32,000 nt of DNA from Telmatocola sphagniphila. Lineage in GTDB: Bacteria > Planctomycetota > Planctomycetia > Gemmatales > Gemmataceae. Shown here in pieces: positions 5,455 through 23,409 of the stretch. The notes below the pieces were generated by a model that did no database searches, was not told where the DNA came from, and saw only the letters and a list, made by a program, of their open reading frames with translations. The first letter of the stretch is position 1. Each line of letters starts with the position of its first letter. Location of the stretch: contig NZ_CP074694.1 of the NCBI RefSeq assembly GCF_018398935.1, positions 1-32,000 on the forward strand, written 5' to 3'. A program made the translations under genes and the position numbers.

Positions 5455-5461
5455 GGAAACC

Positions 5462-7379: not shown

Positions 7380-7437
7380 CCTCAGGGAGCATTGAACGCA
7401 AATTGGATATCATCGCCCTTCAGCCCTAGCACACCGA

Positions 7438-7470: not shown

Positions 7471-8184
7471 GACAGGCTTCTCGAATACAAGAACCTCAGT
7501 GAGAGGCTTGTCGGAATAGATGGGCTCGGATCCACTCGTCTGCCCTTCGACTTCGAGACCAAAGGAAAATCGAACCTGCTGGTATCTGTTGCCTTTGTCA
7601 TCCTCCAGCTTGGGGGCATTGAAGATCGAGCCCGGCCACTGCTCATAGGTACGCTTCTTATTCGGATCGCTGTTGGTAATCTCCAGCCGCACCTCCAGCA
7701 GATCATCTTTCGAGGGGACCTGGGACCTTCCGAACTCAAGCAAATTGATTTTCCCAGCTCGGTACTTGGTGAGCTTCACGCTTATACCCTCTTTGGAAAA
7801 AACCTCCCAGGCTTCTGCGTTGAGCGGCAGCGGCTTCTTGGGTTTGACTTCCGGTTGCTGAACGGCTTGAGGCTCTGGACGAGCGGCGACCTGCGGAACC
7901 GGCTGGCTCTTAGCTCCTTCCGTGTGTTTCTCTTTTCCCTCCCCGACAACAGCACTGGTGATCAATCCGGCAAAGCCAAACACAAACGCGGCGACAAAGC
8001 CCTCCCGACCGACACCGCCCCTGAAAAAGGATCCGAGCCATGCAATGAGTGCGACCAGGATGACCGATAGGGCCACCCATAGGCCTGTGATCGGTGCATT
8101 GAGAATTGGGAGAATGATGGCGGAAAGTCCCAGAAGGACAAGTATTCCAGCGATTGGTGTGCGGGGCGTTGTTTCGGCAGACAT
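7453..8184 (-). CDS. membrane protein with a C-terminal DUF4352-like beta-sandwich domain (reverse-oriented moron)
   Basis: 243-aa ORF on the opposite strand inside the tail module. It has about three N-terminal hydrophobic helices and a Pro/Gln-rich linker. The C-terminal pattern LEVRLEITNSDPNKKRTY...APKLEDDKGNRY...LVFEKP resembles DUF4352. Confidence 0.7.
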   Translation of the reverse strand: MSAETTPRTPIAGILVLLGLSAIILPILNAPITGLWVALSVILVALIAWLGSFFRGGVGREGFVAAFVFGFAGLITSAVVGEGKEKHTEGAKSQPVPQVAARPEPQAVQQPEVKPKKPLPLNAEAWEVFSKEGISVKLTKYRAGKINLLEFGRSQVPSKDDLLEVRLEITNSDPNKKRTYEQWPGSIFNAPKLEDDKGNRYQQVRFSFGLEVEGQTSGSEPIYSDKPLTEVLVFEKPVPGAKS

Positions 8185-8286
8185 GGGGGCTCCTGATGTT
8201 AAGATTTTCCTTATTTTCCAAACTCTCCGTCTGGTGGCAATCCAGGATTCGCATCACACATCCGGACGTCTTGTTAGAGTGGGGGG

Positions 8287-9309
8287 ATGCCAGAACCCGC
8301 ACTACTTTCGACCGAGTACGTTGAGTGGAACGAATCAACCGAAGAAACGGCGATCGATTCTCAATCCGCGACACGTACCTTCTTGCTGTACGACGACGCT
8401 AAGCGGGCTCTCTTCGAGCAGCGATTCCTAGGGTACGTCTACCTCGACGCCTTGAACTACTGGAAGATCGAATATCCGGTCGTCCATCCCGTTCGGAAAT
8501 GGCTTCGCGCGTCCGCCGTCTCCTGGCAAAATCGTGAAGAGGACTATCGCCAGGGGGACACCGGTATCCCGTACGATCCGGCCCTCGCTCAAGCCCCTCT
8601 CGCCAACGGTGCGATCGCCACGGTCACTTACACAAGAGCCCCTTGGAAGGTCGCCGGTTATGACACTGGTGAGAACCCCGATGTCCGAGATCTGATCAAT
8701 GCCGAGTTCAAGAACACTTCTCGCAATTTGACGCTTCCAAATGATCGGTATGTCTGGAGCACTCAGGGAAAGGTGGGGACGGCACCCGGAGCCGATTCAA
8801 CGCCGATCCTGCTGGCCCAGGACGGCGTACAGGCATACATCACGATCCCTACTCAGTCGATTACAGTGATTCGATTCATGGCCCCAGACTTTCCCGTCAA
8901 CGCCATCTCCCAGTTGCAAAACCGAGTGAACGAGAAGGAATACTCGATCCTCAACAAGAAGTATGCTCCTGAGACGCTGAAGCTCCTGGATGCGGAAATG
9001 GTTGATGCCTTGGGTCCGAATGGCTGGAGAGGTTGGACGATCCGTTACACCTTCGAGGCGATCCTCACTTATGACGACGTCATCGTAGCCGGAACGGGCG
9101 GAGCGGCTCCCACGAAATCGACGACTTATGTGGGATGGAATCGACTGTTCGATCCGTCTCGAAACATCTGGGACTACGTCAATCTGCTCAACAATAGCTC
9201 CCGGAAAATCTTTAAGTCCGATACCGAAGTCAAGCAAACGTTTGCTACGAGCGGCGCGAGCGAAGACGTGAAAGGCTTTGATCTGCTGTTCGACCCGAGG
9301 GCATATTAA
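8287..9309 (+). CDS. putative distal tail / tail-tip protein
   Basis: 340-aa ORF, the first gene after the tape measure on the + strand. Its stop overlaps the next start (TAATG). Confidence 0.5.
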   Translation: MPEPALLSTEYVEWNESTEETAIDSQSATRTFLLYDDAKRALFEQRFLGYVYLDALNYWKIEYPVVHPVRKWLRASAVSWQNREEDYRQGDTGIPYDPALAQAPLANGAIATVTYTRAPWKVAGYDTGENPDVRDLINAEFKNTSRNLTLPNDRYVWSTQGKVGTAPGADSTPILLAQDGVQAYITIPTQSITVIRFMAPDFPVNAISQLQNRVNEKEYSILNKKYAPETLKLLDAEMVDALGPNGWRGWTIRYTFEAILTYDDVIVAGTGGAAPTKSTTYVGWNRLFDPSRNIWDYVNLLNNSSRKIFKSDTEVKQTFATSGASEDVKGFDLLFDPRAY

Positions 9310-10687
9310 TGGCAGTCGCTCCCATCCCCGATATGCCCAGGCCGGGCGATCGAGCTATCTCTTCCCGTTTCCTGGAGTGGATTGCCAACGCAGCTCAACG
9401 CATCCTGACTTTGAGTACGGATGCCGGCGGCGTGGTGCAGGGCCCCAACGGCACCTCGATTATCATGCCGAGTGCAGCGGACGAGCCAATTTGGGTGCAG
9501 ATCGAAGGCGATCCGGTAACGGACGATCCGTTGTCGTCCATTTCCGCCGTCGAGATCTTGCCCAAGAAGGGTGGAGACAAAGAGGTCAAAGAGTTGGGCC
9601 GAAAATTCGGCGACGACTACCCGGATCGGCTGTTCCCGGCTCCGGGCGAGGAAGTGCCCGACACTGGAAAGGTAGTCCAGGCCTGGCCCTGGCTGAAACG
9701 ATTGGAGAAGAGCCCCGATCCTCCAGCTCCGGGTGATTCGACGGATCCTTATAAGTACATCCAGGAATGGGTGGTGATGGGCACCGGCGAATCCGCGGAG
9801 CCTTGCAAGGACTGGAAGTTCTACTGCCGGGCGAGGCGAATCAAGTGCATGGACGATGATCCTGAGGGCGGCGATCCCGACCCGGACCCTGACCCTGCCT
9901 GCGTGCCGATCAGCGATCTGAAGATCTGCTTCGATGACACCATCTGGCTCGTCGGCGTGCGATTCTGGGCTTCCTACTACGGCTCAGGACCGGTCCAATA
10001 TCTCTGGTCGTTCAGCGGCGGAGGAGGCAGACGCGGTTACATCACCAACGCCCCGAACCGTTCTATCTCACTTATGAAGTCCCGTATCTCACCGTTTCGC
10101 TGACCGTCTCCAACGGCTGCAGCTCGAAGACTATTGGACCGTTCGCACTTACGTTCCCTGATCCCCGGGGCAAAGATTGCGGGCCTTGTGTCGCGCCTTA
10201 CGATGTGACGATCAATTACACTCTCGCCGGCGAGCGGACCTACAAGTTCACGTCCAGCTTCAGCGGCTCGCATATTGGCGTGATTTACGAATGGCACTTC
10301 AGCGACGGCACGACTTCCGCCCTGGCCGAGCCGACGCACACCTTCGCTGGCCTCGGGCCTTACTTCGCTTCGTTGACTGTGCGGAACGATTGCGGCGGCG
10401 AAACCTCGGAAATCCTCAATCTCTGCATCCCGCCATCGATCACCGGCGTCTCCGTATCCGTGGACGGCTACAGGGTCATTGTCACGGTGAATTACCTCGG
10501 CTCCTACGAGCACTGCGTCATCGACTGGAACGACGGTTCCTCGCCGACGGAGGGGATTTCGCAGGTCCATACCTATCCGCCTATGCCGCGAACTTACACG
10601 CTCACGGTGACGCTCAGCGGCTGCGGTCAGACCGTTATTGTGGCGGCGAATGTTGCCGTTCCTGTTGGAGGGCCAATCGATGGATAA
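9309..10687 (+). pseudogene. tail fibre/baseplate-like protein with three PKD domains, split by a frame discontinuity at a C4 run (10051-10054)
   Basis: The ORF 9309-10103 ends inside a PKD domain (..VQYLWSFSGGGGRRGYITNAP). The rest of that domain (EPFYLTYEVPYLTVSLTVSNGCSS) continues in the -1 frame, which also carries the 10205-10687 ORF. Two further PKD domains follow (YEWHFSDGTTS..HTF..LTVRNDCGG; IDWNDGSS..HTY..LTVTLSGCG). Confidence 0.6.
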
Positions 10688-11447
10688 CAAATGGATCAAG
10701 CCCCCCAATGCTCCGTTCCCGGACTGGCTGCTCGATAAGCTCTGTGAGTGCTGTGAGGACGACTGCTCGACTTGTGATATTTTGCAGTATCCAAAACTGA
10801 AGGCTTATGTGGAAGTGGTCCCGGTGTCGCTGGGTTTCGCTGGCCCGGTCTATCGATGCCCTTATATTTTCTCGGTCGATCTGGACAAGACTACGCGTGG
10901 GACCGATCCGTTTCCTTCGACTCGAACGTGTGCCCTGTTTGCGGGGAACACTGATAATTATCCCGATAGCATCGCCTGCACGACACCGGGGCCATTCTCT
11001 TACAGAGGGCGATCAAGCTCTGGGCCGGTTATTCTTATTGGAAGTATAGCCATGACATGCGATGGTGGGGATGCTGATCGACCAGCGTTAGATCCCTCCA
11101 CCGATGCGACTTTCAATTGTGGAAGCAAGGCCACTACCGATTCAGTAATTTTCCCCTGCATGCAAGAGTACAATTTGGCGTGGCCGCCAGTAGCCAGCCC
11201 GTATGTGCGGTCAAAAAAATTCCTGTTGAATGCCAACTTTAGCTTTTTCGACATCGGCCCAGATAGCACTTTCAACAACGATATTATTCCACAGAACACT
11301 TTCGGAACGGCAAAAGCGATAGCCACCTCTTGCGATCCGCTGATGCTCGTCTTCCTGGTGCCAATGTGGTCCGCTTACGATGGGTTCATCAATACGACCT
11401 GCACTCAGCTCGAATGTTACTTTCGCATCACGGTGACAACGCCATGA
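10680..11447 (+). CDS. Cys-rich hypothetical tail-associated protein (possible receptor-binding protein)
   Basis: The ATG at 10680 overlaps the previous stop (ATGGATAA). The N-terminus has the cluster CECCEDDCSTC. The 3' half is visibly AT-richer than its neighbours. Confidence 0.55.
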   Translation: MDNKWIKPPNAPFPDWLLDKLCECCEDDCSTCDILQYPKLKAYVEVVPVSLGFAGPVYRCPYIFSVDLDKTTRGTDPFPSTRTCALFAGNTDNYPDSIACTTPGPFSYRGRSSSGPVILIGSIAMTCDGGDADRPALDPSTDATFNCGSKATTDSVIFPCMQEYNLAWPPVASPYVRSKKFLLNANFSFFDIGPDSTFNNDIIPQNTFGTAKAIATSCDPLMLVFLVPMWSAYDGFINTTCTQLECYFRITVTTP

Positions 11448-11812
11448 GGATCTGCACCTGCGACAAATGCGACCGGGACTTGACCTGGCCCGAGCAGAAG
11501 GCCTGGGCGTGCAAGTTCTGCTTTCTCTATCACTCGCGGGAATGCCTCCAGGAGGCCTGGGACGCACACCCCTTGGAACGGAAGGACGATGATTCAGAAC
11601 CCAAGCCGCGGCGGATCGCTCTGACTCAATGCGACTACCTGGGCAAGGTGATCGAGAAAACCGACGCCGGCGGCATCGAATGCAGCTGCCAGGGGAAGTG
11701 GCTGCGAAGGTGCCGGCTGCATGGCGAGTGCCGATTAACGCAGCCCTCGGACGTGCCCGACTGTGCGAGCTGTGACGATAACACACTCCTGCCTAAGAAC
11801 CGGCGGAGCTGA
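11444..11812 (+). CDS. small Cys-rich (zinc-ribbon-like) protein
   Basis: ATGA overlap with the upstream gene. Paired cysteines appear at CTCDKC...CKFC and CSCQGKWLRRCRLHGEC...CASC. Confidence 0.5.
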   Translation: MRICTCDKCDRDLTWPEQKAWACKFCFLYHSRECLQEAWDAHPLERKDDDSEPKPRRIALTQCDYLGKVIEKTDAGGIECSCQGKWLRRCRLHGECRLTQPSDVPDCASCDDNTLLPKNRRS

Positions 11813-11852
11813 TCGCCGACTCAGTTCGGGACGCTTTGTTATAGTCGGTTCC

Positions 11853-12224
11853 ATGAAACCCTGGTTCCTATTCAACGACGTCCCCTCGGGACTTTCCTTC
11901 ATCGTAATTCCTCCGGGAACGGAAGTGACCGATACGCCTCTGCGCTCGGCCACCTTCGATCTGAAGACCCCTGGTCTCAGCTGCAAGTCCACGCAGACCG
12001 TGAACAACCTGGAGGGCAGTACGTTTTACGGCAAGTACCAGGAATCCGCCGACGGCATCTCCTGGACCGATCTGGCCGGTGCCGCCTTCACCTTCGTCAT
12101 CACCAGCTCGAACATCCAGACCATTAACTTCACCAGCTCGAAGAGATACCTCCGCTATTCGTGCGAGTTCGATGCAGGCGATTTTGCGTCCTGCACTCTG
12201 GGAGTGAGTCTCAGCACCAGCTAA
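11853..12224 (+). CDS. hypothetical phage protein
   Basis: 123-aa ORF from the ATG at 11853 (the track ORF 11763 starts further upstream in the same frame). Its composition looks beta-rich. Confidence 0.5.
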   Translation: MKPWFLFNDVPSGLSFIVIPPGTEVTDTPLRSATFDLKTPGLSCKSTQTVNNLEGSTFYGKYQESADGISWTDLAGAAFTFVITSSNIQTINFTSSKRYLRYSCEFDAGDFASCTLGVSLSTS

Positions 12225-12290
12225 CCGGAGCCAATTCGTTCCGGAATCTCATCAGGAATTCTTTGTTTCTTGCGGCTTAAAGGAGTGCTT

Positions 12291-12668
12291 ATGGTCCGGT
12301 CCGATCCAAATACTCGCGTTGGAATCGATCCCAAAAGTTGGATCGCTCGCTGGGGCTTCCCGGGCACGATCCTGGTGTTGTTCAGTTACGCCTGCCTGGC
12401 CGCGATCGCGGACATGCGTCAGATCGCCAGTACCTTCCTCGCTCAGGCCAAAGAGGATCGAGCGGCGGATCGAGCCATGATCTTCCAGCTCGCTTCCACG
12501 GTCGAGCAGAACACGCGGGCTACCGACCGCATGGCTCACAGCATGAGCACCATGACCATGATCATCGACCGTCTGGATCGCAAGCACTCGGTCGAGATGA
12601 TCTGGCCCCAGGGGATGGAGTTCACCGCCCCGGAGAAGCTCCCCATGCCCCACGAAAAGGGCAGTTAA
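12291..12668 (+). CDS. single-pass membrane protein, holin-like candidate
   Basis: AAGGAG lies 6 nt upstream of the ATG at 12291. There is one hydrophobic helix (WGFPGTILVLFSYACLAAIA) followed by a helical charged tail. Confidence 0.55.
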   Translation: MVRSDPNTRVGIDPKSWIARWGFPGTILVLFSYACLAAIADMRQIASTFLAQAKEDRAADRAMIFQLASTVEQNTRATDRMAHSMSTMTMIIDRLDRKHSVEMIWPQGMEFTAPEKLPMPHEKGS

Positions 12669-12707
12669 ATCCTTCGCTCACTTCGAGCGATTACTCAGGA
12701 GACCGAA

Positions 12708-13538
12708 ATGAAACGTCTGTCCGCCACGATCCTCGCCCTGTGCTTCGCGTTTGCGGCCTGTGCGAGCGATCCCCAGGCCGGAGGCTCCATTCGCTGGCCG
12801 GAAATTGCTCCCGCTCAGCAAGTGGCCCCAGCTCCCAGCCCCGCCACCGATCTGCAAGCCGATACCTGGTTTGTGATTGAATCGGATGTCGATTGCTTTC
12901 TGTTCACTTCACCGAAAGGCCTGGTCAACGTCACCAAAGAAGCTGGGCCGCTTCGCTTGAAGGGGAAGTTCGCCGACTCCTCCACCGGCAAAACGGAGAC
13001 CCGCAGCTACAAGGCCAAGTGGATCTACACCATTGAGGCCAGCTCGGCCGGGCAATGCGAGATCATCGTCCTGCCGGTCGGTGCCAAGGGGGAAGACGAA
13101 GCTCAGCGTCGAATCCTGAACGTCCTGGGGGCTCAGCCTCCACCCGAGCCAGAGCCGGACTCCAAGCCCAAGCCGAAACCGTCTCCCAAGGTCGTGCCCA
13201 TCGCCGCCGAAGGCTTTCGAGTCTTGATCACCTTCGACAACGCCGATCAGTCGGGCCTCAATGAAGACCAGCAGAAAGCGATCTACGGGGCCGAGCTGCG
13301 GAGCTACCTCAATTCGCACTGCGTTCTGGGACCGGACGGCAAGCTGAGAGAGTGGCGGATCTGGGCCACCGGGATGGATGTCAGCGGCGAGTCGAAGATC
13401 TGGCGAGACGCTTATGCCCGGGACCGGCAGTCGGTCCCCTGGCTCCTGATCAGCAACGGCAAGGAAGGCTTCGAGGGGCCTCTCCCGAAGTCGTTCAACG
13501 AAACCCTCGAATTGTTGAAGAAATACGGAGGGCAATGA
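12708..13538 (+). CDS. lipoprotein, function unknown
   Basis: Signal peptide with a lipobox (MKRLSATILALCFAFAAC), an AGGAG RBS and a Pro/Lys-rich linker (PPPEPEPDSKPKPKPSPK). Its stop overlaps the next start. Confidence 0.7.
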   Translation: MKRLSATILALCFAFAACASDPQAGGSIRWPEIAPAQQVAPAPSPATDLQADTWFVIESDVDCFLFTSPKGLVNVTKEAGPLRLKGKFADSSTGKTETRSYKAKWIYTIEASSAGQCEIIVLPVGAKGEDEAQRRILNVLGAQPPPEPEPDSKPKPKPSPKVVPIAAEGFRVLITFDNADQSGLNEDQQKAIYGAELRSYLNSHCVLGPDGKLREWRIWATGMDVSGESKIWRDAYARDRQSVPWLLISNGKEGFEGPLPKSFNETLELLKKYGGQ

Positions 13539-14365
13539 TGTCGAAGGAACTCATCATCCACGATGGCAACTACAAGGATCATCTGGCCCCGATTATCGAC
13601 GGCCGGCAGGCCTCGACCGGTTTGATCGAGCGGGATTATGCGAAGCATCCTCCGGGCTGTTATGCGACCGTCGACGCCGTGGATGTGCCGATCATCCCGA
13701 GATCCGAGTGGTCCGCTCGGATCAAGGAGATGGAGGAGACCAAGAGCCGTCTCTCCGATATCCGCAATACCGGCAACTTCGGGAAGCGAATCCCCTCACT
13801 GAACCAGAACCCTTATAGCTTTTGCTGGGCTCACAGTGCGACGCACGCGACCATGATGCTGCGGGCGATCTTCAACCTGCCCTATGTGCCTTTGAGCGCG
13901 TTCGCGGTCGCCTGCATGATCAAGAACTACCGCAACGAAGGCGGCTGGGGAGCGGAGGCCCTGGACTTCATTTCGCAGCGAGGCGTCCCCGATCAGAAGT
14001 TCTGGGCTCAGCAGTCGATGAGCCGCTCTAACGACAATCCGGCCACCTGGGCGAATGCAGCTCTGCACCGTGTCACCGCGGGTTGGATCGACATCAAGGC
14101 TCCGGTTTACAACCGCACGATGCCCTTCGACCAGGTGTTCAGCTTGCTCCTCACTCGGACGCCGGGAATCGGCGACTACTACTGGTGGAGACATTCGGTC
14201 AATCTGCTCGACCCGGTCGAAGTCGAGCGCAATTCTTTCGGTATTCGCATCTGGAATTCCTGGGGCGACGAGTGGTCCGACTACGGCACCGCAGTCCTCC
14301 AGGGCGACAAAGCCATCCCGAACGGAGCCACGGCTCCTCGGTTGATCACCGCCTCGGCGGCTTAA
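13535..14365 (+). CDS. papain-like cysteine peptidase (family C1 signature), candidate lysis enzyme
   Basis: From ATG 13535 (MMSKEL...). Carries Q-x5-CW (NQNPYSFCWAHS), His (YWWRHSVNLL) and NSWG-x2-W (IRIWNSWGDEWSDYG) in papain order. No signal peptide is visible. Confidence 0.75.
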   Translation: MMSKELIIHDGNYKDHLAPIIDGRQASTGLIERDYAKHPPGCYATVDAVDVPIIPRSEWSARIKEMEETKSRLSDIRNTGNFGKRIPSLNQNPYSFCWAHSATHATMMLRAIFNLPYVPLSAFAVACMIKNYRNEGGWGAEALDFISQRGVPDQKFWAQQSMSRSNDNPATWANAALHRVTAGWIDIKAPVYNRTMPFDQVFSLLLTRTPGIGDYYWWRHSVNLLDPVEVERNSFGIRIWNSWGDEWSDYGTAVLQGDKAIPNGATAPRLITASAA

Positions 14366-14394
14366 ATCTCTTTTTTCTCTCAATGGAGTAGTCG

Positions 14395-14835
14395 ATGACT
14401 TTCAGTCTGAAAACCTTCTTGAAGCTCTTCCAGGCGTCCCAGGACCCTCGAATCATGGCCCTCGTTGACGAGGTCGAGGCCGCGTATTCGGGAGGCCTGG
14501 CCAATCTCACGCTGAAGCAAGTGCGAGCCTTGATCCGCGACTTTCACGACGTCCTTCAGGTCGCCTCGAAGGCCTTCCCCGATTCTACGCTGCTCAAGAC
14601 ACTGCAAGAGCAGATCAACGATCTGTTCGAGTTCGCTCCGAAGATGGGCAGCATCGTGGATATCGGCGTCGCCAAGCTCAAGGGAACTTTGTCGAGCGAT
14701 GCGACTCTGGAGGAAGCGACCCAGGCCGCAACGAAGTGGGTCACGGAGTTCACCGGGAAGCCGGTCAACGCCTTCGGGCCGTTCCTGCTCTTCGCGGTGA
14801 AGTTGATCGCGAGGATCCTGCTCGGTCTGCTGTGA
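14395..14835 (+). CDS. tail-anchored membrane protein, holin/antiholin-like candidate
   Basis: 146-aa ORF with a GGAG RBS and a single C-terminal hydrophobic helix (FGPFLLFAVKLIARILLGLL). Confidence 0.55.
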   Translation: MTFSLKTFLKLFQASQDPRIMALVDEVEAAYSGGLANLTLKQVRALIRDFHDVLQVASKAFPDSTLLKTLQEQINDLFEFAPKMGSIVDIGVAKLKGTLSSDATLEEATQAATKWVTEFTGKPVNAFGPFLLFAVKLIARILLGLL

Positions 14836-14885
14836 TCTCAGGATCGGTAAATCTCAATCGCCCGTTTTTTCAAAAGGAGTTGTTT

Positions 14886-15233
14886 ATGCGTTTCCTTCTT
14901 GCGGCCGTCCTGGTCGCGTCCCTCGCGAGTCTCAGCCATGCACAACGCTGTTGCCAGGCCCCGAACCCTCCTCAGGCTCCGCCGTGCCAGGTCTTCGTGC
15001 CACCGGCCGTCGCGAAGCCGCGAGTCCCGTACCCCCGCCCGAAGGCCGTCGTCGCCGAGCCGGCACCAGCGGAACCGGTCGTGATGCCAAGCTGGTCCGT
15101 CCAGGAGGCTGTCCGAACGGTCAGTGCCCGGCTCAGCAGCAGGCTCCGCCGCGCATCTTCCGCCTGTTTCGGCGGTAATGGAATTTCACCGGTGGTTTAT
15201 CCGTTGCCCAGGACTAGGGCACGGAGCTGGTGA
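14886..15233 (+). CDS. small secreted Pro-rich protein (3' end / frame uncertain)
   Basis: AAAAGGAG RBS and a signal peptide (MRFLLAAVLVASLASLSHAQ). From about 15110 the -1 frame (ending TAA at 15176-15178) looks at least as coding-like. Confidence 0.5.
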   Translation: MRFLLAAVLVASLASLSHAQRCCQAPNPPQAPPCQVFVPPAVAKPRVPYPRPKAVVAEPAPAEPVVMPSWSVQEAVRTVSARLSSRLRRASSACFGGNGISPVVYPLPRTRARSW

Positions 15234-15239: not shown

Positions 15240-15269
15240 GGGGCTGAGAAGGATCTCGGCCCCTTTTTT
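15240..15269 (+). terminator. intrinsic terminator closing the phage late operon
   Basis: GGGGCTGAGA (15240-15249) pairs with TCTCGGCCCC (15254-15263) with one G-U pair, around the loop AGGA. A TTTTTT run follows (15264-15269). Confidence 0.75.
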
Positions 15270-15325: not shown

Positions 15326-15973
15326 TTAAGTAAACAAACGAGTGACCGTTTCAATATCTGTAGGCGAAAAAAGAACTTTGAGCGTGGACAAATAGAATTG
15401 CTTATTCATCCGATCTGGCCTTCCGAAAACACCAAATGCATTAGTCAAGGTGCTGCACCCAATGTTGGCTCTAAGCAACGCTGTGGCGAACTGTCGTCCT
15501 TCGCTCGGTCTTAAAAATTCCACATACGCCATTCCATCATGATTATAGCTTGCCGGGCTCTCTTGACACGAAGCGACAGTCCTCCAATTTCTTCTCCAAA
15601 CATTCCAAATCAGATTTGCCATCTTTTCATCGACGCACACAACAAAATTGTTAAATCGAACCTCAACTTGCGGATGAGAATCATTTTGCGTCGTATTATT
15701 GAACACACCGCAGGGGCTCATTAGAACATTGTAATAGCCTAATTCAATTAGCAGCTCTCTTTCTTTATCGTTATCAGATTCAGTAAAACGATAATTGTAT
15801 AAAGACTGTGCCAAATCGAATGAATATTCAGCAACTCCAACGATTGGGCCGTCTTCGTCGTAAATCTGATTATTACTACCCATCAAGAAATATATCGACT
15901 CTACTCCAACGTGGTGTGGTTTTGTGTGACCATCGAAAGGCCCTCCAACCAGATTGCATCCTTGTGAGCCCAT
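15326..15973 (-). CDS. hypothetical protein, no recognisable domain (divergent neighbour of the SIR2-like gene)
   Basis: 215-aa ORF in the AT-rich cargo block. It is the only long ORF there. Confidence 0.6.
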   Translation of the reverse strand: MGSQGCNLVGGPFDGHTKPHHVGVESIYFLMGSNNQIYDEDGPIVGVAEYSFDLAQSLYNYRFTESDNDKERELLIELGYYNVLMSPCGVFNNTTQNDSHPQVEVRFNNFVVCVDEKMANLIWNVWRRNWRTVASCQESPASYNHDGMAYVEFLRPSEGRQFATALLRANIGCSTLTNAFGVFGRPDRMNKQFYLSTLKVLFSPTDIETVTRLFT

Positions 15974-16240
15974 ACGCCCCCCCTCTTTTTATAAATTTTA
16001 TTTTACATCTGATTCGTGAAAACACCAAAAAGTACTTTTGCTTATTATCAACTAATTCCCTGAAAAATTAATTCTATTTTTGCGAATACCTTCTACCACA
16101 CAATTTCATTTTACTTACAAAATGTGCAGAGCGTTTTTTTTGGTTCGGCTGACCAAAGAACATTTTTTGATCCAATGTAAGCGTACTCAATTTCGATATG
16201 ATCTGTACAGCGAATCTCTGTAATGTGGAGTTACATAATT

Positions 16241-17311
16241 ATGAAATGGAATTTTTTCGGAACCAATGTCGTGATTCTGGGGGCAGGCTTCTCTTCGGCT
16301 GCAACTGAGGGAAGATCACCTCTTATGCGAGGTTTCTTCGACAAACTAGAACGGGATAATTATCCCGAGCTATATGACTTTGTCAACGAGCATGGATGCA
16401 ATCAAGTTTGCACTCGCATTGAGGATGCGAATGTGGAAAATGTGCTCTTAGCCCTGGACCAGACAGATAACTGCCCTAGTCCTCTGCGGAATCGACTCGT
16501 AGGCAATTTATTTGAAAAAAATTCTATTTGCGATCAATTGGCTTATTACACCATCATGCGATTCAAGACAATGGGAGGCTGGAGTCCAGAGAATTGGGCT
16601 GTGCAAACCCTGGCAAAGGCTAGTGAGCGTACAACAGTGATTTCGATGAACTATGACGTCCTCGCCGATTCAATCTTGTCAAGCCGGACAGGCATGGAGC
16701 ATTTCCCTTCAAAGACGTTGTCTTGCCCCCACTGCAAAATGCGATATCTCCTGAGCCAGGCTTGTAATTGTACAACGCACCCAGGCTTTACTGATGAAAC
16801 AATTTGGCAAGGCGCACTCCTAAAGCTTCACGGCTCCATTGCATGGAAAAGATGTCTGAATCCTGCATGCTGCGCGTATCAATGTTTGGTTCCCGATGAG
16901 CAATGTCGCGCGTTTGAGCCGCATGAATGTCCAAAGTGTAGTCGAATGTGCTCTCCAGCCTTAGTGATGCCTACGATGAACAAGAACCTTAAGGAGACCC
17001 CTGAAATAGACGCAATGTGGCAGGCCGCTATGGCTGCGATTGAAAATGCAGAATCAATCCTAATTTTCGGATTCTCCTTTCCTAGATCGGATGAGTTGCT
17101 CATTCAATCCTTCCGAAAGGCAATCGAAACTTCGAAGCGATTGAAAAAAGTGGGCATTATCGACTTAGATCCCCAGGCTGTTGCACACAATTTTCGATGT
17201 TGTTTGCCAGTTGGCTACCATGTCGAGTATGCTTATCTCAATAGTACAAAGTCAGGTGTACCAGACTGGTTCAATGTTGAGCCGAAACAACTATTTAACA
17301 TCTGCAATTGA
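16241..17311 (+). CDS. SIR2-like (SIR2_2-type) protein with Cys-rich, probably zinc-binding, insertions
   Basis: GGAG lies 10 nt before the ATG at 16241. Motifs occur in order: VVILGAGFS, VISMNYD, LLKLHGS, ILIFGFSFPRSD. Cys clusters: CPHC, CNC, CLNPACCAYQC, CPKCSRMC. Confidence 0.7.
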   Translation: MKWNFFGTNVVILGAGFSSAATEGRSPLMRGFFDKLERDNYPELYDFVNEHGCNQVCTRIEDANVENVLLALDQTDNCPSPLRNRLVGNLFEKNSICDQLAYYTIMRFKTMGGWSPENWAVQTLAKASERTTVISMNYDVLADSILSSRTGMEHFPSKTLSCPHCKMRYLLSQACNCTTHPGFTDETIWQGALLKLHGSIAWKRCLNPACCAYQCLVPDEQCRAFEPHECPKCSRMCSPALVMPTMNKNLKETPEIDAMWQAAMAAIENAESILIFGFSFPRSDELLIQSFRKAIETSKRLKKVGIIDLDPQAVAHNFRCCLPVGYHVEYAYLNSTKSGVPDWFNVEPKQLFNICN

Positions 17312-17419
17312 GGAGCTTTTGATCTGGCCCGAGGCACTGGATTCGAGAACGCCAAAAGAGGGAAGCTACACTAAACCGATTCCAGGGATGGAGTAATCGA
17401 TCTAGGGTTCGGTCACACA

Positions 17420-17698
17420 TCATACCCGCACAAAGTAGTACGTCTTCTCCCGCTTACCGGTCGAGCTTTCAATCCGGATCAGTATCTCGAAATCCCCGGC
17501 ACCGATCAGGTAGTACCGCTCGCCTTCCTGGGGCAGGATCGCCGGCTCGGGCTCGAAGGCGTCTGGATCTTGGCGAGCGAACTTGGCCCCCTGGAGCGTG
17601 AACTCACCCCGGGTGCCGTTGAAGTAGGGATCGATTCGAAGCCAGAGGGGTCTGCGTCGAAGGTCGGCCAGTGTCCAAAGGGAGGAGCTGAGTTGCAT
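17420..17698 (-). CDS. hypothetical small protein
   Basis: A GC-richer ORF convergent with the SIR2-like gene. I chose the start at the internal Met (MQLSSSLW...); the track ORF extends to 17803. Confidence 0.4.
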   Translation of the reverse strand: MQLSSSLWTLADLRRRPLWLRIDPYFNGTRGEFTLQGAKFARQDPDAFEPEPAILPQEGERYYLIGAGDFEILIRIESSTGKREKTYYFVRV

Positions 17699-17894
17699 GA
17701 AGGCATTGGAGCAGGCGGGTAAGGCACTGGCCGAGGTCGGTTGTATTTTCATGAAGAATGCTGCAGAGCAACTTGCTGAAAACATTCGCATAGATTGGGC
17801 CACGGAGTTAGAAAATTGAGGTCTTTCTTTAAGTTTACCTCACAATTAAAGTAAGTGAAAATCAGTTCATAAAAAGCAAATCAACCTAAAAGAT

Positions 17895-17918
17895 AAAGGC
17901 ATATTTAAATATGCCTTT
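17895..17918. repeat. perfect 24-bp palindrome AAAGGCATATTTAAATATGCCTTT
   Basis: Read directly from the sequence. It is followed by T-rich sequence and lies 134 bp upstream of the RCC1-repeat gene start. Confidence 0.8.
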
Positions 17919-18051
17919 GTTTATTTCTTATTCACGGTATTTTCTGCTTTCACAAATGATTAAAAACCATCAGATTGCCATCATTTCGTGTCCATTTCGT
18001 ATTCCCTCAATAACTTTATCCTCACACATAAATTTTGATCGGAACTTTAAT

Positions 18052-19284
18052 ATGCCTAGAATTTTATTTGCTTGGACTTTAACACTCATTTTACTGCCGA
18101 CTTCTGCCCAAGCTCAATATGTCGCTTCGTGGGGCGATGACACAGAAGGCCAGTTGGGAAATGGCTCAATCGGAACCAACTCCGGATACCCCGCGATTGT
18201 TCCAGGTCTTCCTAGTGGAGCGACCGGAATTGCAACCGGGTCATCTCACTGTCTGGCTCTAATCAACGGCCAGGTCTATGCTTGGGGTTACAACCTCTAC
18301 GGTCAACTCGGGATCGGATCGAACGCAACCAATGTGACTACTCCTACTGCGATTACGAGCTTAGCCACTGGAGTTACTGCGATAGCTGCAGGTGACTCCT
18401 TTAGTTTGGCAATTCAAAATGGAAAAGTCTATTCCTGGGGTCACGGGAACGTTGGGCAGTTAGGGAATGGTGGCACTAACTCTTCAAATGCGCCCGTGGC
18501 AGTCAGTGTCCTGACAAGTGGCGTGACCGCAATCGCTGCGGGAGCAGGCCACGCCTTAGCGATTCAGAATGGCCAAGTGTATGCTTGGGGATCAAACACA
18601 TATGGGCAATTGGGGGATGGAACTACCACAACTCGAACGACGCCTGTGGCCATTGGTGGATTAAACATCGGTATTACTTCCATTTCGGCCGGGAACGGAT
18701 TCAGCCTGGCCGTACAGAATGGGCAGGCTTTGGCTTGGGGATATAACATCTATGGGCAACTCGGCGATGGAACTACCACAAATCGCTCGACGCCCGTCGC
18801 TGTAAGTGGCTTAACAACGGGCGTGACTGCGGTCGCTGCTGGTGAAAACCACAGCCTAGCAATACAGAATGGGCATGTTTACGCCTGGGGTTCTAACGGC
18901 CTGGGACAGCTTGGAAACGGAACTACGAATCCAAGCCTGACGCCTGTGGCAGTTACGGGACTCAGTGGATTGACGATTACTTCAATAGCTTGCGGGGCGA
19001 GCAGTAGTTATGCCATTACTGATACCGGCAGGTTATTTGCTTGGGGTTACAATACTGACGGAGAATTAGGAAATGGATTCGGATTTTCGTACAGCACCCC
19101 TCAAGAAATATTTGCTCCTTCGGGGGATCATTGGGCAATGGTCACCGGCTCGATAGATGGTTTCCAGACTTTGGGAATCGTTTCACCCGTTCCAGAACCT
19201 GGTTTCATTCTCGGAGTCGCAGCTTTGGCTCTTATCTCTCTGCTCGGATATTCAAATCGCAAGAAGTCACTCTCAGCAACCTGA
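18052..19284 (+). CDS. secreted RCC1-repeat beta-propeller protein with a PEP-CTERM anchor
   Basis: Signal peptide MPRILFAWTLTLILLPTSAQA. About seven repeats of the form YAWG.N.YGQLG.G. The C-terminus VPEPGFILGVAALALISLLGYSNRKK is PEP, then a TM helix, then a basic patch. Confidence 0.85.
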   Translation: MPRILFAWTLTLILLPTSAQAQYVASWGDDTEGQLGNGSIGTNSGYPAIVPGLPSGATGIATGSSHCLALINGQVYAWGYNLYGQLGIGSNATNVTTPTAITSLATGVTAIAAGDSFSLAIQNGKVYSWGHGNVGQLGNGGTNSSNAPVAVSVLTSGVTAIAAGAGHALAIQNGQVYAWGSNTYGQLGDGTTTTRTTPVAIGGLNIGITSISAGNGFSLAVQNGQALAWGYNIYGQLGDGTTTNRSTPVAVSGLTTGVTAVAAGENHSLAIQNGHVYAWGSNGLGQLGNGTTNPSLTPVAVTGLSGLTITSIACGASSSYAITDTGRLFAWGYNTDGELGNGFGFSYSTPQEIFAPSGDHWAMVTGSIDGFQTLGIVSPVPEPGFILGVAALALISLLGYSNRKKSLSAT

Positions 19285-19421: not shown

Positions 19422-19508
19422 CGAAACGGGTCATGATGGGTTAGAACGAACTATCAAAATCCTCGGAAAACACGCATTTTCCAAGGATCGAAAATGGCTG
19501 AGTACATT

Positions 19509-19550
19509 TTGCAAAACCGTCACTCCCCGGTTCGAATCCGGGCGAGGCCT
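19509..19550 (+). tRNA. truncated tRNA-Cys(GCA): 3' portion only (anticodon loop to discriminator); putative attR core
   Basis: TTGCAAA loop (anticodon GCA), ACCGT, 5-nt variable region, T-arm CCCGG-TTCGAAT-CCGGG, acceptor strand CGAGGCC and discriminator T. The complementary 5' acceptor (GGCCTCG) and 5' anticodon stem (ACGGT) are missing upstream. Confidence 0.6.
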
Positions 19551-19734
19551 CTCGTTCTAACCTGTTGCCGTAAGCCCCTTTATGGCTTAACCTCTCCCAT
19601 CGATAGTGCACCCCTTTCAGGCACGCCCGATAATCCGACGCTAGTTGCAATCAAAATTTCCGTACCGCCTTCGCGCGGTCTGTTTGGATGCCCACAAAAA
19701 CCTTTCTATCTATCGCCTTCGAAGGAGCCCCACG

Positions 19735-20091: not shown

Positions 20092-20559
20092 TTAGCTGGC
20101 CACGCTGTCTTCGATCTGGTGGATCATCCGCCAGATTCGATCGGCTTCGCCCCGTTCGATAATCTGAATGGGCGTCTGGCCTTCGAAAGCTGGGTTGGGT
20201 TCGAGAAGCCAGTTCGCCAGTTTTTCGGCGGGGACGATTTCGCTCAACGCAGCTCGCAGGCGGTCGGTTTCGATTAACTTCTGACGGGCAGCATCGCTGA
20301 CTTGTTTTCCAGACTCCCAACCTGCAATCGACCTCACAGAATAACCTGTAATACGGGCAAAATCTACTTGAGAAACACCAATTTTCTCTCGAATCTTTGT
20401 CACTGCAATCTTTGGGCTTTTCACGACAAGCGCTTCTTCCGGGGGTTTAACTTTCGTCCCTTTTGATACTTGGGCATTTGGTTTTTCGCTACGTGTTCTC
20501 ATTATCCCATTTATTTTGCCTCGTATCAGTCGAAGAGGTTTTTGAGTATTGGGTCGCAT
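20092..20559 (-). CDS. Xre-family antitoxin with a C-terminal DUF2384 (Xre/MbcA/ParS toxin-binding) domain
   Basis: HTH segment GVSQVDFARITGYSVRSIAGWESG. The C-terminus LANWLLEPNPAFEGQTPIQIIERGEADRIWRMIHQIE matches the DUF2384 pattern. AAGAAGGA precedes the ATG at 20559; an alternative start is at 20577. Confidence 0.8.
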   Translation of the reverse strand: MRPNTQKPLRLIRGKINGIMRTRSEKPNAQVSKGTKVKPPEEALVVKSPKIAVTKIREKIGVSQVDFARITGYSVRSIAGWESGKQVSDAARQKLIETDRLRAALSEIVPAEKLANWLLEPNPAFEGQTPIQIIERGEADRIWRMIHQIEDSVAS

Positions 20560-20598
20560 CGAATAATCCTTCTTCATCGCAGATGAAAAGGTCGTATG

Positions 20599-20626
20599 AG
20601 CTGACATGCAAATTTGCATGTCAGCT
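20599..20626. promoter_or_regulatory. perfect 28-bp palindrome between the RES stop and the Xre start (operator or RNA hairpin candidate)
   Basis: AGCTGACATGCAAA/TTTGCATGTCAGCT, read directly. It begins 5 nt after the RES stop codon (20631-20633) on the minus-strand transcript. Confidence 0.6.
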
Positions 20627-20630
20627 GATT

Positions 20631-20756
20631 TTATCCCTTTTTGCCAAGTTTGTCGAGTAGCCTTGGATTTAGTACCTTCAATCGAGATTCCGACGACAAA
20701 TTTTCTGGAAAAATAAGGAGATTCTGCCCGTTTGGATCTGGCTTGGAAGCTACTAG
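20631..20756 (-). pseudogene. RES-domain toxin, C-terminal fragment (downstream of the IS insertion)
   Basis: Translates as LVASKPDPNGQNLLIFPENLSSESRLKVLNPRLLDKLGKKG*. It contains the Ser of the R-E-S triad and joins in frame to 22617 once the IS and one CTAG copy are removed. Confidence 0.75.
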
Positions 20757-22612
20757 TCCTTAAACAAGCGAAGTTTTTGATGCCAATTCCGTGGGGAGTT
20801 TTAGCGAGATAGTTCGATGAGTCCTCCGCGCCGGAGCTTTTCGCTCGGCCGAACGCATACTTCTATTTTTCAAACATTCTTCCTTTCCGCGAATAGCTCT
20901 CGGCGTTTTATCGGATCGGGACATCCGGATCCCGACTTCAGTCGGTCGAACGATCAGCACCTCAGTGCTTTCAGTAGTCGGAAGAAGATCGGCAAGTGCG
21001 GGTTCCAGCCGAGCAATCGATAGACGATGCGGCCGGCCTTCCGGACGATCTGACAAGGCAGAAGCATGAAAGCATTGAGGAAGGTTTTGAATTCCATTTT
21101 CAAAACCGACTGCTTCTGGTCCCGATGCTTTTCCCGCCAGCGACCGGGAGTTTCCGGCAACGTCAAGGCCCACCAGGCTTTCAAGTTCCAGGCCAGGGAG
21201 GCCATCACCATGTACGCCCAATTGCTTTCCAGATCGTGCAGCGGCGCGTGCAAGGCCCGGCAACCGCCCTTGAGCTGCGCTATCAGATTTTCCTGATTGC
21301 AGCGATCGTTGGCTTCGTAGACGACTTCGGCGGCCGTGCACTCCCGGTCGTTGGTGATGTAGAAGAAATAGCGTTCGTCCGGATACAGAACGGATTCGCC
21401 TTTTTCCACGGAAAGATTCTTGCGAATCACCACCAGGCGATACGCCCTTCGGCAAGCGGTCGGTTGGTACTCGAACTCGGCCACCGCTTCGGAGATCAAC
21501 TTCACATTTACGAATTCCCGCTCTTGGACGATCCGCTCCTTGGTGTTTTCCCGTCGGTGTCGCAACTTCGCTTTCGCCGAGTATTGCGCGGGACGCTCGA
21601 GCTTGTGCCAAGCCGCTTCCGGCAGTTTTTCCGCGATTGCTTCGAGGTTTTGCTTCGAATCGTAGCCGAAATAAAAGCGTACCTTGGCGTTGGCATCCCA
21701 GCCGTCGAGGCGAGTGGTCTGCGAGAAATCGGTGTCGCCGCGAAAGACGATCCTGCGAAAGCCCGCTTGAAGGCACAGCAAAAGAGCCCGGTCGAGTTCG
21801 ACCGCGGCCCCTTCGTGCGAAGGGCGATTGCCGGGACGGTTGACGATGCTCAGCGTCTCACCGGTGTTGGCCAGGGTCACCGCCAGGGGGTGGTAACACC
21901 AGTCTCTGTTATAGTTGATGTCCATCCCCGCTTTACGCTCGCCACGCGTTTGGGTAAAGCTGCCGTCGGCGTCGATCTTCGCGCATTCCCAAAAGGAATC
22001 GGGTTGCTTCGACCAGACGCGTAAACGGGTCTGGTTGAAAGCGTCGATCAAAGCCTGGATGCTGCCACTATCGAAGCGTCGACAAAAGTCGCCCGAAGTA
22101 GTCGGGTCGGGAAAACGCTGAGTGCCCAAGGCGTTGAGAAAGTTTTCGTCCGTGCGACGCAGTTCCATGTCTTGCAGGCAGGTACCCCCGCAAAGGGAAT
22201 TGTAAGCGATGGCCAACACGTGGTCCGATTCCGAGTAAGGCCTTTGAAATTGGAGCAGATGCAGCTTCTCGTCGATGTCGTCGATCAGTCCGATACGCCG
22301 GGCCAGAAGGTGCATGGCCCCGAGGCCTCCGCAACTGATCGCCCCCACGCGTTCGGAGACTTCGTAATGAATGTTGGAGGCGTCGAAAGAAGGAGCGAAG
22401 GTCATCGCGGCCTCTCGCTTAGCCAGGCGACGTTCGATTCGACTCTTGCATTTTTGAAACCAACGTCCGAAAATAACATTCACTCGAAACTCCTTTTTGC
22501 GACTGTCGATTTGTTAAGCGGTTACTTACACAAACCGCAGAAAACAAAAAGGATTTCGAGCTTTCTTCGATAAATCGAAACAATTCTCCAAAAAACTACG
22601 CTGGTTTAAGGC
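20757..22612 (-). mobile_element. IS1380-family insertion sequence (1856 bp) inserted in the RES toxin gene
   Basis: Terminal inverted repeats TCCTTAAACAAGCGAAGTTTTT (20757-20778) and the reverse complement of 22591-22612, GCCTTAAACCAGCGTAGTTTTT (19/22 match). Flanked by a direct CTAG duplication (20753-20756 and 22613-22616). Contains a single transposase ORF. Confidence 0.8.
20954..22483 (-). CDS. DDE transposase, IS1380 family
   Basis: 509 aa. Blocks are collinear with ISEcp1/IS1380-type transposases: KIDADGSF..GMDINYN, NRPGNRPSHEGA, FRGDTDF, YFFYITN, RCNQENLIAQLK, SNWAYMVMASLAWNL. Confidence 0.8.
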   Translation of the reverse strand: MNVIFGRWFQKCKSRIERRLAKREAAMTFAPSFDASNIHYEVSERVGAISCGGLGAMHLLARRIGLIDDIDEKLHLLQFQRPYSESDHVLAIAYNSLCGGTCLQDMELRRTDENFLNALGTQRFPDPTTSGDFCRRFDSGSIQALIDAFNQTRLRVWSKQPDSFWECAKIDADGSFTQTRGERKAGMDINYNRDWCYHPLAVTLANTGETLSIVNRPGNRPSHEGAAVELDRALLLCLQAGFRRIVFRGDTDFSQTTRLDGWDANAKVRFYFGYDSKQNLEAIAEKLPEAAWHKLERPAQYSAKAKLRHRRENTKERIVQEREFVNVKLISEAVAEFEYQPTACRRAYRLVVIRKNLSVEKGESVLYPDERYFFYITNDRECTAAEVVYEANDRCNQENLIAQLKGGCRALHAPLHDLESNWAYMVMASLAWNLKAWWALTLPETPGRWREKHRDQKQSVLKMEFKTFLNAFMLLPCQIVRKAGRIVYRLLGWNPHLPIFFRLLKALRC

Positions 22613-22616
22613 CTAG

Positions 22617-23093
22617 TAACCCTTCGAAGCCGATTTCGAAAGCGGCCCGACCAATAGCTTGAGTAGTCGATTCGTCTCCTCGGGCCATTATCGCACGCCA
22701 ATCTTCAATCATCAATAACGATAGGGAGCCTTAAAGTATGTCGGTGAGATCTAAGTTTGCAAGATTCAGAATGGATTCGACTTTCACTTTTATAGCCACA
22801 GTGACTTTGGGCATTTCTTGTGCTAATCGTAGTTTGTAGTAGCGATAGTTCTCTTTTGCCTCATGCATCGCCGTAATGGGATCTGCACTCAGGTACAGGA
22901 CCTTCATGACTTGGAGCGGATTCCAGCGTCCACCACCCAGATATGAGCCCATGCCCGACAGGATTTCTTTCGGAGTGGTATACCGCGGTCCGACGACTCT
23001 GAAGAATTCCGAATTCAAACTCATGGAGTCTTTTCGATGCCGTTTGAGCCATCGGCTAATTTCTCGGTACCGGGGATGGGCTTTTTGCTTCAT
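22617..23093 (-). pseudogene. RES-domain toxin, N-terminal and central part with an in-frame TAA at 22731-22733
   Basis: FFRVVGPRY...GGGRWNP...VLYLSADPITAMHEAKEN carries the Arg and Glu of R-E-S. After the stop the same frame continues as GSLSLLMIEDWRAIMARGDESTTQAIGRAAFEIGFEGLL, up to the IS junction. Confidence 0.75.
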
Positions 23094-23409
23094 TGGGCTA
23101 TATAACAAATCGAATTGGGTTACATGTAACAAGTTGCGATTAGTTCCGCGGACATATCCGAGTACTCCTAACACTACTGGACTTCTCGAACATTTTACGG
23201 CAACGGGAAAGAGGGGGAGAGATAGCTTTAACCTACGGCAGGGAATGGAGTATCCCTTATGAGAGGAATTTCGCTTGCGAAACCTTCCTTGAATCGGAAT
23301 ACGGAACTATCTCATTCTTTCGTTCCGAGGTCCGATGATATGTTGTCTCGGGTTATTTATAGTTGCATTCAATTCTGATCTTCTCAACTTCTTCCTGCCC
23401 TCAGCCTCC

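Follow-up and report, generated by a model that had tools for sequence, protein, structure and literature searches.

A stand-alone SIR2-fold protein with a sirtuin-type zinc ribbon, a predicted one-gene defence effector of Telmatocola sphagniphila

The first 32,000 nucleotides of contig NZ_CP074694.1 from the planctomycete Telmatocola sphagniphila (RefSeq assembly GCF_018398935.1), a stretch called here the window, carry a gene, KIH39_00135, that encodes a SIR2-fold protein of 356 amino acids (aa). A first-pass annotation, made from the letters alone, had joined this gene to a divergent neighbor as a candidate two-gene anti-phage module at the end of a prophage. The defense reading holds up with respect to the enzyme fold and the company that its relatives keep, but not with respect to the module. 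What we propose instead is that the gene may be a self-contained, single-gene effector of defense or abortive infection. The function is predicted, through guilt by association, and we put about as much weight on its being right as on its being wrong. Membership in the SIR2 fold, with a complete NAD+ site, we regard as established by the structural model and the conserved residues, while enzymatic activity is only predicted. The key point that goes beyond the first-pass annotation is that the family as a whole carries the zinc tetrad of sirtuins within a SIR2 that is otherwise of the immune type. The gene and the motifs on which the argument depends are as follows.

16241..17311, + strand: stand-alone SIR2-fold protein of 356 aa (KIH39_00135), the proposed effector
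16268..16294, + strand: VVILGAGFS, NAD-binding glycine loop, residues 10-18, with G14 and G16 invariant in the core and wider alignments
16643..16657, + strand: SMNYD, residues 135-139, equivalent of the sirtuin NxD, with N137, Y138 and D139 invariant in the core
16724..16771, + strand: CPHC...CNC (C162, C165, C175, C177), a clade-specific Cys4 of the small domain and putative zinc site
16817..16837, + strand: LLKLHGS, residues 193-199, with the catalytic-type His197; H197-G198 invariant in the core and wider alignments
16853..16951, + strand: Cys-rich ribbon, residues 205-237 (33 residues, 8 Cys), made up of the tetrad C205/C210/C230/C233 and the additional C211/C215/C222/C237

In an AlphaFold2 model of the protein, based on 55 homologues (predicted local distance difference test score, pLDDT, 91.6; predicted template modeling score, pTM, 0.91), the SIR2 fold occupies the whole length. 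The judgment that the protein is too short to carry SLOG, HerA-fusion, pAgo or DSR-type sensor regions was sound. All 19 matches that Foldseek found in the Protein Data Bank (PDB) with an E value of 1e-3 or less are SIR2 proteins (7e-7 to 1e-4 for those to the SIR2 of SIR2-HerA and to classical sirtuins), headed by the SIR2 of SIR2-HerA (8wld, 8sub) and followed by Sir2-Af1, Sir2Tm, PfSir2A and SIRT4/5, with SIRT6 just above the cut. The strands that DSSP assigns to the model (residues 10-13, 132-135, 193-195, 236-241, 272-276, 303-308 and 329-334, plus a ribbon strand at 198-205) hint at a seven-stranded sheet, as a list of strands and not as a topology taken from the coordinates. A sheet of this kind would be a difference from classical sirtuins, and a central sheet with at least seven strands is one of the marks of sirims.

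The SIR2 model of PADLOC (PDLC04087) matches the protein at E=3.6e-9 and its Aga_SIR2 model does so weakly (E=1e-3). The classical Pfam SIR2 family (PF02146) does not match it, and the CobB-type deacylase models of NCBIfam match it weakly, over residues 193-279, with 17-19 bits against cut-offs of 243-320. All the motifs that had been quoted as a SIR2 signature are present and conserved: G14, G16, N137, Y138, D139, H197 and G198 are invariant in the 55 homologues, as are C162, C165, C205, C210, C230 and C233, and SMNYD aligns with QNID of CobB and with TNYD of SIR2-HerA. The first-pass identification of a SIR2 protein is thus borne out by profile and by fold, though Pfam SIR2_2 remains below its threshold (see below).

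Twelve cysteines are conserved in at least 90% of the 55 homologues, and 49 of the 55 possess the full set; besides the invariant ones these are C175, C177, C211, C215, C222 and C237. Four of the twelve, C205, C210, C230 and C233, are evidently the zinc tetrad of classical sirtuins, because of their position and of what they align with. C205 follows the catalytic His by 8 residues, and the C230-x2-C233 pair stands directly before the next core strand. An hhalign comparison with a single E. coli CobB (taken from NC_000913), weak at E=0.03-0.06, brings H197 onto the catalytic His, C205 onto the first zinc Cys and CPKC onto CHCC, and the profile of the wider family matches SIRT7 and Sir2-Af1 exactly over the segment composed of HG plus ribbon. 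The pattern HG[S]-x(4-6)-C-x(2-4)-C...C-x2-C is found in 64 of 64 core proteins and 96 of 98 peripheral proteins of full length. A sequence search of the PDB with the ribbon segment gave no match.

The eight other cysteines (C162/C165/C175/C177 and C211/C215/C222/C237) are specific to the Planctomycetota clade and do not appear among the columns conserved in the wider family. P0067, which is the most divergent member, keeps the tetrad but is without 211, 215, 222 and 237 together and without 175 and 177 together, a joint absence that supports three separate Cys4 sites. We infer three Cys4 zinc sites, predicted in their grouping as well as in their binding of metal. The Cys clusters had been taken in the first-pass annotation for an expansion around the His and a possible sensing insert. 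They are not simply a novel sensing insert: only eight of the cysteines are clade-specific, and the remaining four are the sirtuin tetrad and belong to the family at large.

How large that family is could be gauged in two ways. A word-indexed search returned 67 homologues (30-53% identity, 205-376 aa, nearly all 339-376 aa), and genome scans placed homologues in Pirellulales, Planctomycetaceae, Thermoguttaceae and Phycisphaerae as well as in one metagenome-assembled genome of Acidobacteriaceae. An exhaustive profile search, with clusters counted at 50% identity, gave a sharp core of about 40 clusters (E<1e-60) surrounded by a periphery of 2,707 clusters at E<=1e-10, or 8,607 at E<=1e-3, most of them single-domain proteins of 330-360 aa. 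In a sample of 60 peripheral members, 22-27% identical to the 356-aa protein, the residues that remain invariant or nearly so are G14, G16, S18, N137, D139, H197, G198, C205, C210, C230 and C233. The 356-aa protein is a member of a Planctomycetota clade of about 90 proteins, 340-360 aa in length, within a very large zinc-ribbon SIR2_2-like family.

Outside the ribbon, as judged by profiles and motifs, the sequence is like that of SIR2_2 proteins and of the zinc-less immune SIR2 proteins called sirims. Over the N-terminal two-thirds, the wider-family profile matches the SIR2 of SIR2-HerA (E=1.7e-9) and FAM118B (2e-3). The next strand past the ribbon, ALVMPTMNKNLKE (V-x-P-T-x-x-K), aligns with VVIYPTMLKHKE of a SIR2-HerA SIR2, a segment also given as VIYPTMLKHK. 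FGE is the substrate-staple motif of sirtuins; the family described here has the sirim-type PTxxK instead. Among the 60 peripheral members, Pfam SIR2_2 matches 21 at E<=1e-3 and classical Pfam SIR2 matches none, while PADLOC assigns Aga_SIR2 to 38, SIR2 to 32 and PDC-S21 to 10. Nine of the 67 homologues have a precomputed match to PF13289. NCBIfam has no model for the family, and its SIR2_antiphage and CobB models are each matched weakly by 5 of the 60.

This combination is not what has been described for immune SIR2 proteins. The zinc site and Cys tetrad were reported to be 'systematically absent from sirims' (Bonhomme et al., bioRxiv 10.1101/2024.09.18.613514), and the tetrad to be 'missing from ... 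other SIR2_2 proteins' (PMC12700824). The zinc-ribbon family is an exception to the sirim rule or an intermediate with respect to it. Literature searches, which covered open-access papers, found no description of such a zinc-ribbon sirim-like family.

The case for a role in defense comes from where the homologues lie. By a qualitative tally, they repeatedly sit in defense islands and mobile elements, without a fixed partner. One locus combines an integrase with a D5 primase, a resolvase and ArdC; another has an integrase with MADS (mad genes) and MqsA; a third, a reverse transcriptase with an NmeDI-like gene and AAA_16/TPR; a fourth, a resolvase with Peptidase_U49. A type I restriction-modification system ends 65 bp upstream of the closest homologue. 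In locus L054, which also has AbiEi/AbiEii, HD-CE and CHAT, a gene with helix-turn-helix (HTH) and Peptidase_M78 domains ends 15 bp upstream. HmaA, BrxC, QatA, MTase_I, type-IV DinG, PifA and HepT occur near other homologues. For the sirim clade, defense neighbors are enriched 12-fold, and those of its members that have been tested are active NADases (bioRxiv 10.1101/2024.09.18.613514; PMC12700824).

Two sets of neighbors recur, at the coordinates given below for each locus. An MqsR/MqsA-like pair, made of a protein of 123-140 aa and a zinc-ribbon-HTH MqsA-like protein of 198-290 aa, is found at four loci next to the SIR2 homologue, upstream in three of them (L002, L013, L014), where it ends 29-30 bp before the SIR2 gene, and downstream in L011. 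It may be a hitch-hiking toxin-antitoxin module or perhaps a local regulator. A MADS-like set (PADLOC mad2/mad3/mad8), consisting of an N6 methyltransferase and proteins of 128-133 aa and 461-497 aa, stands divergently beside the SIR2 gene in three loci and could form with it a recurrent defense-island pairing. Neither the pair nor the set has a counterpart in the window.

MqsR/MqsA-like pair: L002 4682-5971; L013 8662-9972; L014 800-2089; L011 2101-3085
MADS-like set: L002 1-4493; L009 299-5849; L013 3901-8589

If the gene is indeed a one-gene effector, infection would switch the SIR2 enzyme on and NAD+ would be consumed, as in ThsA, DSR2, SIR2-HerA, SPARSA and Avs5, and this consumption would arrest the cell ahead of phage release. 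Since there is no partner, recognition of the trigger and control of the enzyme must both lie within 356 residues. The likeliest seat of recognition and auto-inhibition would be the Cys-rich region of small domain and ribbon, which adjoins the NAD+ cleft and where the three predicted zinc sites would flank the cleft that in classical sirtuins receives the peptide substrate. A change in oligomeric state would probably bring about activation, as in ThsA, SIR2-HerA, DSR2, Avs5 and FAM118 (PMC12700824 and references there).

Several considerations weigh against a one-gene defense effector. In PADLOC the protein matches generic SIR2 models but no defined system, and Pfam SIR2_2 (PF13289) is below threshold for the 356-aa protein (15.6 against 24.5 bits, E=0.017). 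The tally of neighborhoods is qualitative, and three homologues lie in contexts that look housekeeping, amid metabolic genes. No close relative of the SIR2 family was found in IMG/VR or INPHARED, only a 22%-identical gene of a Rhizobium plasmid. The phage and viral collections that were searched hold no member of the family, so carriage by a prophage is not something that characterizes it. A stand-alone NADase left unregulated would be toxic, and the mechanism proposed to control it is only postulated. Finally, the zinc tetrad, which classical sirtuins use for protein substrates, has been kept, and this points away from a pure NADase.

That last point leads to the rival explanation that survives best: a protein-directed sirtuin and not an NAD+ depleter. 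Its retained tetrad and the two further Cys4 sites would build a platform for binding a substrate, and the enzyme would then act by ADP-ribosylation or deacylation of one specific protein, of phage or host, with immunity or conflict as the result. We consider this unlikely. The sequence outside the ribbon is sirim-like, there is no match to classical Pfam SIR2, the sirim-type PTxxK takes the place of FGE, and the genes keep company with mobile elements and defense islands, not with metabolism. All of this speaks against a protein-directed sirtuin, but the ribbon itself speaks for one. Its tetrad is positioned relative to the His and the next core strand as in CobB, it is over the ribbon segment that SIRT7 and Sir2Af1 are matched, and the NCBIfam deacylase models match residues 193-279. 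Moreover, the tetrad is tied to peptide binding and is reported to be absent from all immune sirims (10.1101/2024.09.18.613514; PMC12700824).

Quite unlikely, in our estimation, is a toxin-like addiction or selfish cargo of mobile elements, held under an upstream transcriptional regulator and serving maintenance of the element, not defense against phage. The MqsA-like zinc-ribbon-HTH genes that end just before the SIR2 gene in L002, L013 and L014 could be such regulators, as could the HTH-Peptidase_M78 gene of L054, and the homologues often lie within islands that bear an integrase or a resolvase. However, regulators of this kind occur in a minority of loci only and are absent from the window. 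Because toxin-antitoxin and defense functions overlap heavily, this explanation is not cleanly separable from the one-gene effector that we favor.

The two-gene module of the first-pass annotation requires a look at the surroundings of the gene.

15240..15269, + strand: hairpin and T-run (GGGGCTGAG..CTCGGCCCC TTTTTT), visible in the sequence, at the end of a co-directional phage-like cluster and at the boundary where GC drops
15326..15973, - strand: open reading frame (ORF) of 215 aa, p215 (KIH39_00130), an ORFan; a neighbor and no demonstrable component
15974..16240, no strand: divergent spacer, 267 bp, 33% GC, with a 12-bp perfect palindrome, AAAAGTACTTTT, at 16027-16038
17420..17752, - strand: third ORF, hypothetical protein of 110 aa (KIH39_00140), an unrelated neighbor
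17911..19284, + strand: fourth gene, for a PEP-CTERM protein with RCC1 repeats; it has the SIR2 gene on one side and the tRNA remnant on the other
19472..19551, + strand: degenerate, tRNA-Leu-like remnant (relaxed ARAGORN) whose T arm is intact, candidate copy of an att site and candidate island boundary

The three ORFs lie where the first-pass annotation had put them, and the AT-rich spacer that it gave as roughly 270 bp has the length and composition listed. Some ends are open to choice. The SIR2 ORF encodes 362 aa if begun at 16223 and 356 aa if begun at 16241; the latter start is favored by a GGAG that precedes its ATG by 10 nt and by the alignment of MKW with MDW of homologues. The third ORF is 110 aa in the NCBI annotation and 127 aa in a longer reading, 17420-17803(-), whereas the 92-aa version of the first-pass annotation begins at the ATG at 17698.

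It now seems very unlikely that p215, or else the 110-aa ORF, serves the SIR2 enzyme as sensor or regulator. In favor of the idea, p215 and the SIR2 gene diverge across a spacer of low GC that holds a palindrome, they share a foreign composition (GC content at third codon positions, GC3, of 0.40 and 0.47, respectively), and p215 is a real ORF, far longer than expected by chance, as 0 of 5000 shuffles of the region reached 215 codons (the longest shuffled run was 183). However, genes for RCC1, Xre, RES and DUF3800 proteins nearby are also low in GC, so composition provides no specific link between the two.

Comparison with other genomes also speaks against the module. Among 5.8 billion proteins p215 matched only itself. 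The remark that it has no recognizable motif stands, as no match was obtained in Pfam, PADLOC, NCBIfam or the sequences of the PDB. Against PHROGs the matches were marginal (E about 1e-3) and to families of unknown function, and a single-sequence AlphaFold2 model (pLDDT 32.7) was unusable for a fold search. A check for co-localization of p215 homologues with SIR2 genes, suggested by the first-pass annotation, ended with no p215 homologues found at all. By tblastn, both p215 and the third ORF are absent from 28 loci that have a close SIR2 homologue, and the absence of p215 from all 28 implies that the SIR2 family works without it. The same search with p215, the third ORF, the RCC1 gene and a 143-aa ORF against 54 fetched loci had no match but the homologue of the third ORF. 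This sole homologue, 67% identical, is on a contig without a SIR2 gene, and the third ORF also differs from the SIR2 gene in composition, its GC3 of 0.73 being like that of host or phage. All-against-all clustering of neighbors within 6 kb in 26 close loci placed no family in more than 4 distinct loci. The top clusters proved to be antisense ORFs within the SIR2 gene itself and were discarded as artefacts. The claim of a divergent partner thus appears largely refuted by comparative genomics, and the partner hypothesis should be dropped.

Least likely of all, and very improbable, is a housekeeping protein deacylase of Planctomycetota. The zinc tetrad is present, CobB-type NCBIfam models match weakly and some homologues lie amid metabolic genes. 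However, all scores are far under the cut-offs (19 bits where 243 are required), members are patchily distributed and share no more than 53% identity, the composition is foreign with no syntenic Gemmataceae position of host-like codon usage seen, and the mobile-element and defense contexts are strong.

The SIR2 gene is carried on horizontally acquired, low-GC DNA beside a phage-like cluster. GC content is 0.54-0.63 upstream and 0.40-0.49 over 15.5-18.5 kb, with the drop directly past 15.3 kb, and GC3 in four late genes upstream is 0.72-0.82. Windowed GC and GC3 both reproduce the fall in base composition that had been noticed by eye.

Whether the neighboring cluster makes the gene a prophage's cargo, set between lysis genes and attR as had been claimed, is a separate matter. 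The genes from 161 to 15233 are tightly packed and co-directional. Of the upstream ORFs compared with PHROGs (n=18), a single one matched, to a tape-measure family (E=8e-10), and a papain-like cysteine peptidase is encoded near the end of the cluster, at 13535-14365(+). The hairpin and T-run at 15240-15269, called a late-operon terminator by the first-pass annotation, are visible in the sequence but are not listed by a consensus terminator scan. The prophage label rests on these features; the cluster has no relatives by tblastn against phages or in two scans of viral contigs, and the SIR2 family is absent from phage collections. The label of prophage cargo is plausible but unproven. The last two genes of the cluster, which have no family match, encode proteins of 146 aa (14395-14835(+)), hydrophobic at its C-terminus, and of 115 aa (14886-15233(+)), which bears a signal peptide; the stretch 13535-15233 could be a lysis cassette of the endolysin/holin/spanin kind.

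The only tRNA-like remnant found that could be the att-like fragment said to follow the three ORFs is degenerate and lies past a fourth gene. Its T arm, GGTTCGAATCC at 19529-19539 (the sole exact match in the window), and its 3' acceptor are intact, while the 5' half has decayed. Neither ARAGORN at default settings nor Rfam at E<=1 calls it; ARAGORN reports a poor, degenerate tRNA-Leu only at the relaxed settings -ps60/70. No direct repeat within the window matches the remnant, and attL and an integrase would lie outside the window.

Other features of the region deserve a brief mention. The palindrome AAAAGTACTTTT in the spacer is a possible operator common to both divergent genes. The RCC1 protein at 17911-19284(+), within the foreign stretch (GC3 0.44), has seven blades, a signal peptide and a PEP-CTERM tail, and the internal 150-nt DNA repeats of its gene correspond to the RCC1 blades. 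Farther on, a gene for an Xre/MbcA/ParS-type antitoxin (20092-20619) and a RES-domain ORF (22731-23174), both on the - strand, are separated by a DDE transposase (20954-22483). The match of the RES ORF covers no more than the profile's first third. Taken together, 20092-23174 looks like a RES-Xre toxin-antitoxin pair, of the NAD+-targeting type, that has been split or rearranged by an insertion sequence; RES lies upstream of Xre, which is an unusual order. A foreign-looking DUF3800 gene (24907-25875(+), GC3 0.49) lies in the same region as the insertion sequence and the toxin-antitoxin remnants, and these suggest a mosaic island that reaches about 26 kb.

SIR2 enzymes are recurrent effectors of bacterial immunity, with human descendants (FAM118/SIRanc). 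The current split sets zinc-bearing deacylase sirtuins apart from zinc-less immune sirims, and a large family with a sirim-like core, a life in defense islands and the tetrad puts this dichotomy to the test. A stand-alone, zinc-ribbon, multi-Cys, sirim-like SIR2 is a variant not found in the literature searched. One might go further and see in the family the missing link from housekeeping sirtuins to the sirims of immunity, an immune-context SIR2 in which the zinc module was kept, then tripled in Planctomycetota, and directly recognizes a phage protein or nucleic acid. We hold this to be improbable. If it were true, the protein would be the smallest known self-sensing NADase defense protein or else the first immune sirtuin that works by modification of a target protein and not by depletion of NAD+. 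The 2,707 clusters at E<=1e-10 would then represent a widespread, unrecognized class of defense, and the rule that sirims have no tetrad would be overturned. With neither partner nor sensor domain, the protein is a minimal system, of 356 aa, in which to ask how a SIR2 senses infection and otherwise stays off. There is also a practical correction: studies of the locus should treat it as a system of one gene and not pair it with the ORFan.

Set beside known systems, the 356-aa protein fails one defining feature of each big SIR2 subfamily: it has no match to the classical models, and it has the tetrad that sirims are said to lack. Classical sirtuins (CobB, Sir2Tm, Sir2-Af1, SIRT5/6/7) share its fold and have the Cys4 tetrad at the same place. 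Unlike them, it has no Pfam SIR2 match and scores more than 200 bits below the NCBIfam cut-offs, it is larger, it has eight extra conserved cysteines, and its context is one of mobile elements and defense. With the sirims and SIR2_2 proteins (ThsA, DSR1/2, SIR2-APAZ, Avs5, FAM118) it shares defense neighborhoods and an affinity to SIR2_2, Aga_SIR2, PADLOC SIR2 and FAM118B. It differs from them in that its family has the tetrad and has no fused SLOG, Macro, APAZ, STAND or DSR C-terminal region.

The protein would work like the individual systems below but belongs to none of them. Thoeris differs in that the 356-aa protein has no SLOG or Macro domain and its neighbors, which have no Pfam or PADLOC match, include no TIR ThsB. 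DSR1 and DSR2 are single proteins of about 1000 aa or more, whereas the 356-aa protein and all 67 homologues span only 205-376 aa, with no long C-terminal sensor. SPARSA is distinguished by its APAZ region and pAgo neighbor, both absent here; the match to Aga_SIR2 is weak (E=1e-3). The lactococcal protein AbiH (PF14253), which acts in abortive infection as a single gene product of roughly 350 aa, is a precedent for a stand-alone SIR2-like defense protein, but the 356-aa protein matches it marginally (E=0.22 and 12 bits, with the cut-off at 30.9) and is not a member. AbiH has been counted among sirims (10.1101/2024.09.18.613514). Nor is the protein a member of the PADLOC candidate PDC-S21 (E=0.033).

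The closest of the known systems is SIR2-HerA (Nezha; 8wld, 8sub, 8w9l, 8yhx). The differences are clear: no HerA-like gene lies beside the SIR2 gene of the window or appears in the Pfam tables of the loci examined, the 26 close loci have no conserved neighbor, and where the 356-aa protein has its ribbon of 33 residues and 8 Cys, the SIR2 of SIR2-HerA has a short, Cys-free linker. Even so, that SIR2 is the best structural match (Foldseek E=6.6e-7, TM score about 0.5), with a profile match as well (E=1.7e-9); it is of comparable size, about 340-430 aa, and the motifs GAGxS, xNYD, KxHGSxxW and V-x-P-T-x-x-K are common to both.

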